Below are positions 11,719 to 14,119 of a stretch of 64,000 bases of DNA, in pieces. The DNA comes from a bacterium (GTDB lineage: Bacteria > Patescibacteriota > Minisyncoccia > Minisyncoccales > UBA10102). Below the pieces are notes generated by a model. That model worked only from the letters and a program-made list of their open reading frames with translations. It was not told the DNA's origin and searched no databases. Position 1 is the first letter of the stretch. The number at the start of each line of letters is the position of its first letter. The DNA lies in NCBI GenBank assembly GCA_030647485.1, contig JAUSJT010000004.1:109088-173087 (forward strand), written 5' to 3'. Made by a program: the position numbers and the translations under genes.

Positions 11719-12622
11719 AACTAAAATACGCGCGGTGGGGAATATTAAGCAGATAACGCGAGCCATGGAAATGGTGGCTGCAACTAAAATGAGAAAAACT
11801 CAAGAGGTTGCGCTACGTGCCCGTCCTTATGCGAAATACGCGCTTTCACTATTGCGCAGCCTTTTGCTTCTTGAAGGAGGGGAGGAGTTGAGAGCGCAGA
11901 GCCATTTCTTCAAGGAAGTGAACCGAAAGAATCCCTGTCTTGTGGTGGTGACTTCAGATAGGGGCTTGTGCGGAGGGTTCAATAGCCAGGTGTTAAGAGC
12001 TGCACTCAAGTTTAGAGAGGAGTATCCAGAGTTATCTGTTGTGGCTATTGGGAAAAAAGGGAAAGAGTTCTTTGAAAGACGTGATATCCCTGTTTTGAAA
12101 AGCTTCTCTGATTTCTCCGAGGTTGTAACTCTTGCCGATGTTGCTCCCGTAGCAGAGTTTCTTATGACAGAATATGCACAGCATAGGCATGACACCATTG
12201 AGTTTTGTTCCACTCAATTTGTTTCTGCGCTATTCCAAAAAGTGGCGCTGCACAGGGTGTTGCCCATTACGGAAGATGAGCTGGAAAAGACGATTCAAGG
12301 AATTATTCCAAAGTCGGGGAGGTATTCTGATATTCAAAACGTAGAAGAAAAGCAAGAATCCGTTGTGTCGCTCCTAGAACCTGGAGCAAAGAATATCTTT
12401 GAAGAACTGGTAGAAGATTTAGTCAGGGTAGAGATCCTTCATCTTATCTTTGAATCCAATGCGTCAGAACATTCAGCCAGAATGTTTGCCATGAAGAATG
12501 CAACAGACAATGCCGAAGATTTAGAAGAAGATCTCCAACTTCTTTTAAACAAAGCGAGACAGGGAGCCATTACCCAGGAATTGAGCGAGATCGCAAGCGC
12601 AAAAGAAGCATTGATATCATGA
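11696..12622 (+). CDS. atpG: F0F1 ATP synthase subunit gamma
   Basis: 308 aa; [19 protein letters not shown]-terminus, C-terminal ...ITQELSEI... Confidence 0.92.
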
Positions 12623-12724
12623 TAATAAATTTTAGGTAATAAAATTTCAGTTTCCCCCGTGTAGGAAATTATTCAAAACCGAGGGTTTTGAAAAGAGGGG
12701 GGTCGGGGGAAACTGTGTGATCGT
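12623..12724 (+). repeat. structured repeat family 2, copy 1 (atpG-atpD spacer)
   Basis: CAGTTTCCCCCG...CGGGGGAAACTG outer stem, inner TTCAAAACC-gag-GGTTTTGAA hairpin, ends ...GTGTGATCGT directly before ATG 12725; related copies at 28952, 48646(-) and 59209. Confidence 0.75.
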
Positions 12725-14119
12725 ATGAACAAAGGCACTATTGTACAAATCATGGGGCCGGTCGTAGATGTGGAGTTTTCAGACTCTCTTCCTCCTTTGC
12801 GCCAGGCTCTCTCTATTAAGACCCCCGCCTCCGCTGAAGCTACGGCGGGCAAGCAAGAAAGGCAGGTTGTTTTGGAAGTTGCCCAACACCTGGGGGGAAA
12901 CAGGGTAAGAACTATTGCAATGAATTCTACTGACGGGCTGCAGAGGAAAATGGAGGTTGAAGATACCGGAAACACCATGACGGTTCCTATAGGGGAAGAG
13001 GTGTTGGGCCGTATGTTCAACGTGCTGGGCGCTCCCATTGACGGAGGACCGGAACTTCCCACGAGCGTTGCCCGTGCTTCTATATACCAGCCAGCCCCGT
13101 CTTTGCAAGACCAGAAGGTAGAGCCTGAAATCTTTGAAACAGGAATTAAGGTTATTGATCTTTTATGCCCATTCCTCAAAGGAGGGAAAGTTGGGTTGTT
13201 TGGGGGAGCAGGAGTTGGGAAGACCGTGCTTTTGCAAGAGCTCATCCATAACACCGCAAAGGCGCACGGAGGATATTCCGTGTTTGCGGGGGTTGGGGAG
13301 AGAACAAGAGAAGGAAATGATTTATATAGGGAAATGAAAGAGTCTGGGGTGCTAAAGAACACCGCGCTTGTATTCGGCCAAATGAACGAGGTTCCGGGCG
13401 CAAGATTCCGCGCTGCCTTGACCGGATTGCGCATTGCAGAGTATTTCCGAGATGACAAACGTAAAGACGTCCTCTTGTTCATAGACAACATCTTCAGGTT
13501 CGTGCAGGCAGGGTCTGAAGTATCCGTGCTTTTAGGAAGAATGCCTTCTGCGGTAGGATACCAGCCCACGCTTGCTACGGATATGGGAGCCTTGCAAGAG
13601 CGCATCACGTCTACAAAATCAGGGTCTATCACTTCCGTACAGGCCATTTACGTGCCTGCAGACGATATTACAGATCCTGCTCCCGCAACAACCTTCTCCC
13701 ATTTGGATTCTACCATTGTGCTTTCTCGAGAATTGGCTTCTTTGGGTATTTATCCTGCAGTGGATCCTTTAGATTCCAGATCTTCTGCTTTAGACCCCAG
13801 GATTATAGGGAAAGAACATTATGATACAGCACGGGCAGTACAGAAGATTCTCCAAAGATACAAAGAATTGCAAGATATTATTGCTATACTTGGCATGGAA
13901 GAGCTTTCTGAAGACGACAAGCTTATCGTGGCAAGAGCACGAAGGATTCAGAGGTTTCTTTCCCAGCCCTTCTCGGTTGCAGAAACATTTACGGGCAGGC
14001 CGGGGAAACATGTAAGCAAGGAAGAGACCATACGGGGCTTTGCGGAAATTCTGGCAGGAAAGCACGATGCTAAAGAAGAGTCCGCCTTCTATTTGAAGGG
14101 TGGCATAGATGAGGTGTAA
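12725..14119 (+). CDS. atpD: F0F1 ATP synthase subunit beta
   Basis: 464 aa; GGAGVGKT P-loop, ...[14 protein letters not shown]... Confidence 0.97.
12824..12853 (+). repeat. 30-nt GC-rich palindromic segment inside atpD (in frame, [10 protein letters not shown])
   Basis: CCCGCCTCCGCTG..GCTACGGCGGGCAAG; the same 13-mer and 15-mer occur in rpsS at 38664-38714 in the same codon phase. Confidence 0.6.

Follow-up and report, generated by a model that had tools for sequence, protein, structure and literature searches.

What lies between atpG and atpD in the window analysed here (64,000 nt of contig JAUSJT010000004.1, from a patescibacterium of the order Minisyncoccales), and how did it get there? 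The initial annotation had described a block of about 90-100 nt framed by two ATGA sequences, the left one being the atpG stop overlapping an ATG and the right one the atpD start, and had interpreted it as a start-codon-associated element with three further copies in the window. Both ATGA sequences were found as described (Table 1), the flanking genes are atpG and atpD as judged from Pfam and homologues, and the left ATG does open the mini-ORF (open reading frame) MIINFR*. The reading that we favour, and to which we assign a moderate probability, is that the block (c1) belongs to a family of mobile, non-autonomous, structured modules built on a conserved RNA core. On this reading c1 would be one copy of a non-coding, strongly folded insertion module of ~100 nt, whose arrival would have split the ATGA overlap of atpG and atpD.

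The window was scanned with the 18-mer TTTCCCCCGTGTAGGAAA, with up to 3 mismatches allowed and 100 shuffled sequences as control. Four matches were obtained, at 12651(+), 28977(+), 48702(-) and 59232(+), against 0.06 expected, and none of the 100 shuffles attained four. They correspond to the four copies initially reported (c1 to c4); a search of the whole window with a core covariance model, filters off, did not find a fifth. Copies c1 and c3 are 90% identical across 94 nt, and the predicted fold of c1 has an energy of -33.9 kcal/mol (z = -3.9 versus shuffles). The four blocks had been presented as alike, which is correct for c1 and c3 only: these two define what we call the N-type, c2 is without the GGTTTTGAA...GGGGGGTCGGGGG half, and c4 is not a truncated but a circularly permuted form, the P-type, to which most copies found elsewhere belong. 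The unit of c1-c3 had also been described incompletely: an AT-rich hairpin on its 5' side and a tail on its 3' side, GTGTGAKCGT, belong to it. One point speaks for chance similarity or an assembly artefact, namely that many contigs stop inside copies (as is typical of repeats); this explanation is already refuted by the number of matches, by the consistent contexts of copies in independent assemblies from many projects and by the presence of c4 in syntenic relatives, and its probability is negligible.

Comparison with relatives revealed that copies come and go at a given site. In three loci whose AtpD is 92% identical (L136-L138; loci from other genomes are given by such numbers), atpG and atpD are joined as TGA-C-ATG (...ACCATGTGAC ATGAAT...) with no element, and the element is likewise missing from the 28-nt junction of L141. 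L139, with an AtpD also 92% identical, carries there an unrelated 85-nt insertion (positions 830-914) with GGATTC/GAATCC hairpin arms, which makes the junction a recurrent landing site. At rpsL, the position of c2 is taken in L142 (S12 96% identical) by an intact N-type whose tail is that of c2, from which it follows that c2 is the product of a 40-nt deletion between two GAAACCG repeats; the deletion removes the 3' half of hairpin P3, the G-rich junction and the first 3' strand of helix Pa (see below), a decay that is tolerated before rpsL. The rpsL start site is empty in L143 and L145, and the promoter-like TTGACA-17-TAGAGT upstream of it is common to the relatives compared. Conversely, two sites without a copy in the window are occupied in relatives: the rpsM stop and the rpsK ATG, 13 nt apart in the window, are separated by a reverse N-type in L109 (~86% nt identical), and rpsJ is followed by a P-type in L044 (91% identical). 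Being present in some relatives and missing in others, the element is not a dedicated regulator of atpD or rpsL.

The N-type insertions are fixed to the base beside start codons. In forward copies (c1, c2 and L013) the tail touches the ATG and in reverse copies (c3, L006 and L109) the hairpin end does; c3, located between tpiA (47813-48631) and an RNaseH-like gene (48742-49257; both by Pfam), thus has its hairpin end directly against the ATG at 48742. No strand bias was apparent (5 same/same versus 5 opposite/opposite). Short repeats flank the copies of the window, ATGA for c1, ATG/AT for c2 and CATAA for c3; a TA...TA flank is possible in six copies, no flanking repeat is visible in L004, L012 and L124, and the empty sites of L136 and L143 fit a duplication of 2-4 nt. 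N-type copies would spread as DNA, presumably by transposition catalysed by an enzyme acting in trans, and would enter AT/TA(TG) immediately 5' of a start codon, in either orientation, so that the functional ATG stays on the gene side. In the window, c1 and c3 would be recent insertions of this sort, c2 would be decaying and c4 would be a P-type fixed behind rpsI.

The translation start signals of the genome bear on how such insertions could be survived. Of 73 crude gene calls in the window, only 8 are preceded by a Shine-Dalgarno-like motif. The ATG of many genes follows a TATAAT-like hexamer at a distance of 6-8 nt (e.g. at 26782(-), 27246, 18544 and 50890), and these features suggest that leaderless transcripts are widespread. 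TAAAAT-like hexamers were also seen 4-6 nt before the divergent ATGs of L006, L109 and L124. We infer that initiation is largely Shine-Dalgarno-independent, either leaderless or coupled. The scarcity of Shine-Dalgarno sites and the hexamers close to the ATG would mean that the few bases upstream of an ATG at operon junctions hold nothing essential for initiation, and a 100-nt hairpin against the start codon would be tolerated in essential operons because initiation does not depend on a Shine-Dalgarno site. AAGGGGGU, a possible Shine-Dalgarno mimic, sits ~20 nt or more from the AUG and was rejected as a ribosome-binding site. A promoter within the AT-rich hairpin was dropped as well: a consensus scan found no two-hexamer site in the hairpin of c3 or, on the sense strand, in that of c1, the sole site at c1 being an antisense 9/12 match.

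The N-type parts come in this order: AT-rich hairpin (AAAUUUUA-loop-UAAAAUUU), 5' strand of helix Pa, junction GUGUAGGAAA, an optional hairpin P2 (ACAG...CGUUA), hairpin P3 (AAACC-GNG-GGUUU atop a covarying base), AAAGAG-GGGGGU, 3' strand of Pa and a 9-nt tail, for a total of ~100 nt. Helix Pa has 11 bp, CCCC(G)/(C)GGGG followed by 7 variable pairs. In the P-type a loop caps Pa and the chain opens between AAAGAG and GGGGGUC, which gives the order 5' arm, RAAGGGGGUC, Pa hairpin, GUGUAGGAAA, (P2), P3, AAAGAGCGA, a variable P4, GCGAC and 3' arm. Accordingly c4 reads GGGGGTC-GGGG[loop]CCCC-GTGTAGGAAA-hairpin-GGAGCGAAGCGAC; its core scores 93.8 bits (E = 1e-22) with covariance model R1, and orthologues of it are present in the syntenic relatives L060, L046, L073, L094, L053 and L118. 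Both permutations occur in the same stand-alone context (e.g. L009 versus L057).

The outer stems initially proposed (CAGTTTC/GAAACTG for c1, CGGTTTC/GAAACCG for c2 and TGGTTTC/GAAACCA for c3) are all correct, and their covariation extends to other genomes: 17 distinct N-types keep every one of the 7 variable pairs of Pa through differing sequences (C-G, A-T or T-A, for example). The outer pairs of Pa and P3 alternate, among 80 P-type cores, between A-U, G-C, C-G and U-A, with 11-35 sequences each. Variants detected by the covariance model carry the covariation into the GGGG/CCCC block (GGAA/UUCC), and the base of P3 covaries as a helix (UUCA/UGAA, UUAG/CUAA, CCAG/CUGG). The junction is conserved as GU(G/A/C)UAGGAAA in these variants, GU-AGGA-A-A being invariant or differing at the third base only (GUAUAGGAAA, GUCUAGGAAA), and ~30 nt of the ~60-nt core are near-invariant from Saccharibacteria to Parcubacteria. 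From this pattern, the conserved core is most likely an RNA fold.

To determine the range of the family, species-representative genomes were searched with the exact 18-mer and metagenome contigs with a gapped 24-base pattern. The 18-mer was found in 15 genomes; six of them, all Patescibacteria (a Parcubacteria group bacterium, Staskawicz-, Nealson- and Saccharibacteria and two metagenome-assembled genomes labelled 'bacterium'), contain 7 full elements, and the remaining 9 matches are bare chance, the rest of the element being missing. At least 120 metagenome contigs match the gapped pattern. The window itself belongs to a metagenome-assembled patescibacterial genome that is a near relative of Wildermuthbacteria. 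IMG/VR contigs gave zero matches, and carriage by phages was rejected for that reason. Neither the window nor 30 loci gave an Rfam 15 match at the gathering threshold, and at E up to 10 there was none over c1 and none overlapping the element in six P- or N-type loci; full-text literature searching, sequence strings included, found no description of the element. The family is thus apparently very large, Patescibacteria-wide and undescribed. Copies do exist elsewhere, they are not bound to one orthologous gene, c1 is missing from the atpG-atpD junction of relatives and the covariation signal is kept in larger alignments: the observation of the initial annotation is real, and its interpretation as an element family is supported. 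A tmRNA or tRNA-like gene, which the tRNA-like appearance of the flanks of stand-alone copies had brought to mind, was rejected, since ARAGORN and Rfam place the real genes alongside the element and the flanks copy the ends of those genes. The anatomy was found not to fit hammerhead, hairpin, hepatitis delta virus or twister cores, group II domain V or retron msr/msd.

The contexts of the family are broader than the start-codon association first proposed, which holds for the N-type. P-type copies are mostly oriented along with the upstream gene (54 versus 12 opposed). A large subclass, which we call type (i) leaders, has conserved extra flanks (ACAUCCCAYAUCGG...CGACUAACUUGGUAUUACCACU-AUG), with a distance from 3' flank to AUG that varies by 0-6 nt and, in about half of the cases, a -10-like hexamer that precedes the opening G-run of the core by 21-32 nt. 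The whole 5' leader of the genes for S12, S7, S8, S4, S20, L16, L10, NusA and NusG can consist of a P-type, and type (i) leaders also precede an NYN-domain gene and others. A T-box-like UGGU/ACCA pairing in the 3' flank of these leaders was considered and rejected: some leaders have it, but it is broken in L076, L084, L096, L105 and L127. Nine copies lie directly upstream of a tRNA: in four of them (L004, L037, L065 and L078) no base separates the element from tRNA +1, and in the others the gap is no more than 10 nt, the L065 element heading a tRNA-Thr/16S rRNA unit.

The initial annotation had offered as an alternative a conserved leader structure that has been copied around, and this is partly borne out, for the P-type alone, by the leaders of translation-apparatus genes. 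A dedicated cis-regulatory leader (riboswitch, ribosomal-protein or other operator) of atpD, rpsL and other genes could be invoked from the recurrence of P-type leaders before translation-apparatus genes in many lineages and from rpsL, before which the element occurs in one form or another in the window, L142, L127 and L134. We consider it very improbable: c1 is missing in close relatives and the rpsL site is empty in two of them, copies also follow terminators and tRNA genes, run antisense or stand in front of unrelated genes such as that of the NYN-domain protein, and the element is not followed by an expression platform, be it a terminator or a Shine-Dalgarno-sequestering helix.

The main competing explanation is a cis-acting RNA processing element (perhaps a new class of self-cleaving ribozyme or an endonuclease recognition module) that would cut at its own 3' boundary. 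The cut would release leaderless mRNAs starting with 5'-AUG as well as tRNA 5' ends, and the element would separate cistrons in a bacterium whose translation starts without Shine-Dalgarno sites. The unit does abut, with its 3' end, the ATG in c1, c2 and L013 and tRNA +1 in the four copies cited above, the same core exists in two circular permutations in otherwise equivalent contexts (L057 and L009), its junction strands are near-invariant while its helices covary, the P-type is strand-biased and the genome is leaderless in style. Circular permutation is typical of hammerhead and twister ribozymes among small natural RNAs. On the other hand, antisense N-types inside operons (c3, L006 and L109) have a sense RNA that is not part of the mRNA, c2 is kept before rpsL without half of the core, the distance to the AUG is not constant in type (i) leaders, copies located after terminators, such as c4, have nothing to release, and no Rfam ribozyme matched at E up to 10. 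The antisense copies and c2 weaken the processing explanation for the N-type; it is attractive for the P-type. Taken as a whole, we hold it to be possible though clearly less probable than a mobile module.

We give about the same, rather low, credence to the idea that the core is a new Patescibacteria-specific catalytic or tRNA-docking RNA of which the N-type copies are mobile, partly decaying offshoots. Two possibilities can be envisaged, a self-cleaving ribozyme that would trim transcripts to the AUG or to tRNA +1, and a free-standing T-loop platform, similar to that of the L1 stalk, that would bind tRNA; either might be a portable cassette set before translation genes and rRNA/tRNA units and behind tRNA genes. 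In the mobile-module reading that we favour, the core would act in P-type contexts as a folded RNA module on the sense transcript, and the role that we prefer for it is that of a transcript-end or processing/stability module.

The docking possibility stems from the junction. Nine of the 10 positions of GUGUAGGAAA agree with GUGUAGGAUA, from the L1 stalk of E. coli 23S rRNA, a weak argument when taken alone. T-loop 1 of the L1 stalk is defined by AG..A with one extra residue and a G-U before it, the G being the platform for the tRNA elbow (PMC3664808); GU-AGGA-A-A fits this definition, platform residues included, and the junction directly follows the closing helix as it does in the L1 stalk. 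The element is also associated with tRNA and translation genes, and its likeness to the stalk is at the level of sequence. A second unpaired T-loop, UG..A, was not found: UGAAA occurs only once, at the base of P3, where it is paired and covaries. Membership in the double T-loop modules is consequently not established, and the T-loop signature, which speaks for a regulatory leader, is deprived of its partner. A T-loop-based tertiary fold is plausible.

Another group of copies borrows the end of the gene that precedes it. About a quarter of the distinct copies (33/127, 26%) follow a tRNA or tmRNA gene of the same strand at a distance of 50-130 nt, and are separated from it by the gene's own, unconserved terminator. 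Their closing helix is made of a 5' arm that is an inverted copy, and a 3' arm that is a direct copy, of the gene's 3' end. Examples, both P- and N-type, are L009, L017, L026, L038 (tmRNA) and L077; L005 copies the 5' end of the tRNA instead. Direct repeats of at least 12 nt flank 29 of 100 copies versus 1 of 100 shuffled controls, and most of them span the T-loop to the acceptor end. Copy c4 is built alike behind rpsI (identified by Pfam), the end of which (RQWRKR*, 59169-59189) reappears as RHWRKR* at 59288-59308. The layout is conserved in L060, L046/L073/L094, L053 and L118, with a perfect 18-bp closing helix (18-nt reverse complement) and a 23-nt direct repeat in L053. The two rpsI-end copies follow each other's amino acid changes (WRKR versus WSKR) and have alternative synonymous versions, which are swapped in L118 relative to the window. 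Translational bypass between the two rpsI ends was rejected, its anatomy being unfitting and its product unchanged.

The tRNA T-loop to acceptor end is a classical integrase target. The tRNA- and rpsI-linked copies could then be miniature integrative elements or att remnants left by a tyrosine recombinase, the core being in that case not an RNA but a site of DNA recombination, with a fold that it might adopt as single-stranded DNA. As with integrative elements targeting tRNA, tmRNA or rpsI genes, the gene stays intact and its last 15-25 nt are directly repeated (L009, L017, L038, L077, others and the rpsI copies), and the swap in L118 looks as if one version had arrived with an incoming element. 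We nevertheless judge this origin unlikely. The repeats are only ~200 bp apart, for an insert of ~150-200 bp, with no integrase inside or among the neighbours; the spacer between gene and element is a different, unconserved terminator at each locus; L005 copies a 5' end; the added inverted copy, which forms an RNA-like helix around the core, needs an extra explanation such as templated hairpin extension; and c1-c3 and the 5' leaders, which have no gene-end repeats, are left unexplained. Integration may explain the gene-end-copying subclass only, where the arms could come either from recombinase-type integration into conserved gene ends or from repeated templated hairpin extension.

Some members of the family are associated with unusual arrangements. 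In L025 (3300-3600), L031 (5600-5900), L021 (1150-1450) and L012 (5750-6100), the element is repeated in tandem with spacers of 50-80 nt between the copies. The spacers of L025 and L031 code for a small hydrophobic peptide, ...VLAIIGV(V/A)I(K/R)..., and the 3' arm of the closing helix is formed by the beginning of this reading frame. In L004, an N-type stands between tRNA-Ile and tRNA-Ala and ends exactly at tRNA-Ala +1; at 2808-5230 of the same locus, a full-length 16S rRNA match is spread over 2.4 kb, which implies ~0.9 kb of intron-like inserted sequence.

If the N-type is a mobile DNA, it is not of a standard kind. With Correia/CREE of Neisseria, Rickettsia palindromic elements, Nezha and RUP/BOX it shares a short, non-coding, multi-copy sequence and stable hairpins. 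Like repeats of the MITE (miniature inverted-repeat transposable element) type, it is polymorphic between close relatives down to strain-level presence or absence, lies at gene boundaries in either orientation, is co-transcribed with its neighbours and encodes no transposase. It differs from them in its lack of terminal inverted repeats and of a uniform target duplication, in the precision of its insertion beside start codons, in a core that is almost invariant across divergent Patescibacteria and exists in two circular permutations, and in the many copies that make their closing helix from the end of a neighbouring gene. The repetitive extragenic palindromes (REP), their mosaic elements (BIME) with the RAYT transposase and the IS200/IS605-derived elements also rely on structure more than on terminal repeats, with subterminal hairpins, no obvious target duplication and a GTAG tetranucleotide beside a hairpin. 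Unlike them, the present element has neither a fixed target tetranucleotide nor tandem inverted pairs, no Y1/HUH transposase was seen, and it is far more complex than a 20-40-nt REP; an IS200/IS605 or REP affiliation was rejected, the left flanks being different (ATGA, CCAT, CCATG, AAAAAA) and the N-type strands 5:5. The hammerhead (types I-III) and twister (P1/P3/P5) ribozymes offer a parallel for many copies of a permuted core in varied contexts, with invariant junctions, covarying helices and, in the P-type, a three-helix junction layout; the antisense copies in operons and the absence of any sequence or covariance-model match to Rfam ribozymes set the element apart from small self-cleaving ribozymes.

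Several of our observations weigh against a mobile module. No terminal inverted repeats were found in c1-c3, whose ends (AATTTTAGG... and ...GTGTGATCGT) are non-complementary and whose only inverted repeat is the internal helix Pa. The flanking duplication, of 2-5 nt, is variable, and not visible in L004, L012 and L124; at rpsM/rpsK, L109 differs from the window by a replacement of 15 nt and not by a clean insertion. The surroundings of the 127 copies contained no transposase, integrase or reverse transcriptase, and a cognate autonomous element was not found either, there being no recurrent mobility gene beside them and none in IMG/VR; an associated protein acting in cis was rejected, the clustering of neighbours having yielded only S9 and housekeeping genes. 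Some 30 near-invariant core nucleotides across lineages are unusual for a purely selfish DNA, and the core is so close to the ATG or to tRNA +1 that RNA processing could be primary, in which case 'mobility' could be the gain and loss of a useful cassette. Finally, tolerance through Shine-Dalgarno-independent initiation is an inference only.

The Patescibacteria represent a large share of bacterial diversity, with tiny genomes that are almost unstudied at the RNA level. The family described here is abundant among them, absent from Rfam 15, exists in two circular permutations, borrows the ends of tRNA, tmRNA and rpsI genes for its stem and inserts exactly at the start codons of essential operons (atp, S10/spc/alpha and rpsL) without killing them. 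Were the core a ribozyme or a tRNA binder, it would show how gene expression can be organised without Shine-Dalgarno sites and might provide a tool to generate scarless 5' ends. Were it merely selfish DNA, it would be an unusual start-codon-seeking element, the copies of which should be masked by gene callers and RNA annotators.

Table 1. Positions of the four copies in the window, with the parts of c1 and c4 and the adjoining features
Feature	Position	Strand	Basis
atpG, ATP-synt gamma	11696-12622	+	Pfam
ATGA, atpG stop + overlapping ATG (left flanking repeat of c1)	12619-12622	+	sequence
c1, complete N-type unit	12623-12724	+	sequence; fold; absent from same junction in L136-L138
c1 AT-rich hairpin	12627-12647	+	part of c1
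c1 helix Pa, 5' strand	12648-12659	+	part of c1
c1 junction GUGUAGGAAA	12659-12668	+	part of c1
c1 hairpin P3	12672-12692	+	part of c1
c1 junction AAGAGGGGGGU	12693-12703	+	part of c1
c1 helix Pa, 3' strand	12704-12715	+	part of c1
c1 tail UGUGAUCGU	12716-12724	+	part of c1
ATGA, atpD start codon (right flanking repeat of c1)	12725-12728	+	sequence
atpD	12725-14119	+	Pfam; 100% identical to F0F1 ATP synthase beta subunit
Promoter-like TTGACA-17-TAGAGT upstream of c2	28905-28933	+	sequence
c2, N-type with 40-nt internal deletion, in rpsL 5' leader	28953-29036	+	sequence; comparison with L142
c3, complete N-type, reverse orientation	48646-48739	-	sequence; 90% match with c1
c4, whole, P-type	~59190-59308	+	sequence
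c4 closing helix, 5' arm (imperfect inverted copy of rpsI 3' end)	59195-59206	+	sequence
c4 core: ACAGAGGGGGUC, Pa with cap loop UGGGU, GUGUAGGAAA, P3, GGAGCGAAGCGAC	59207-59286	+	covariance model R1
c4 closing helix, 3' arm (diverged direct copy of rpsI last codons + stop)	59287-59308	+	sequence
Hairpin + T-run, intrinsic-terminator-like, ending the c4 unit	59315-59347	+	sequence

The window contains another repeat, the 'first family' of the initial annotation, with copies of 168 nt at 8121-8288, 38749-38916 and 40724-40891. These have imperfect terminal inverted repeats (CCCCGTAYGAAATTTAC...GTAAATTTCTAACGGGG) and TATG on both sides, and are placed exactly on the start codons of atpB, rplV and rpsQ (Pfam-confirmed); the version present in the window has no copy in the 141 loci fetched. 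A kinship between this family and the c1-type repeat had been suggested. They have the motif CCCCGT in common, and the rpsL start codon of L144 is occupied by an element resembling the first family (850-1003), with inverted-repeat ends CCCCGTAC...GTACGGGG and TATG flanks, so that, from sequence comparison, the link may be regarded as supported, not proven.

Two minor observations were made in passing. The top-scoring S12 database entries (P0121-P0127; 197-224 aa) are chimeras, from very short contigs, in which two S12 sequences are joined head to tail; they are assembly artefacts and not N-terminal extensions through the leader. Lastly, a 42-nt repeat with a terminator-like hairpin (AACCGCCACGGAGGCGGTTTTTGG) is found in the window after rpsJ and again 1.1 kb downstream (34188-34229 and 35324-35365), the two copies being 90% identical.

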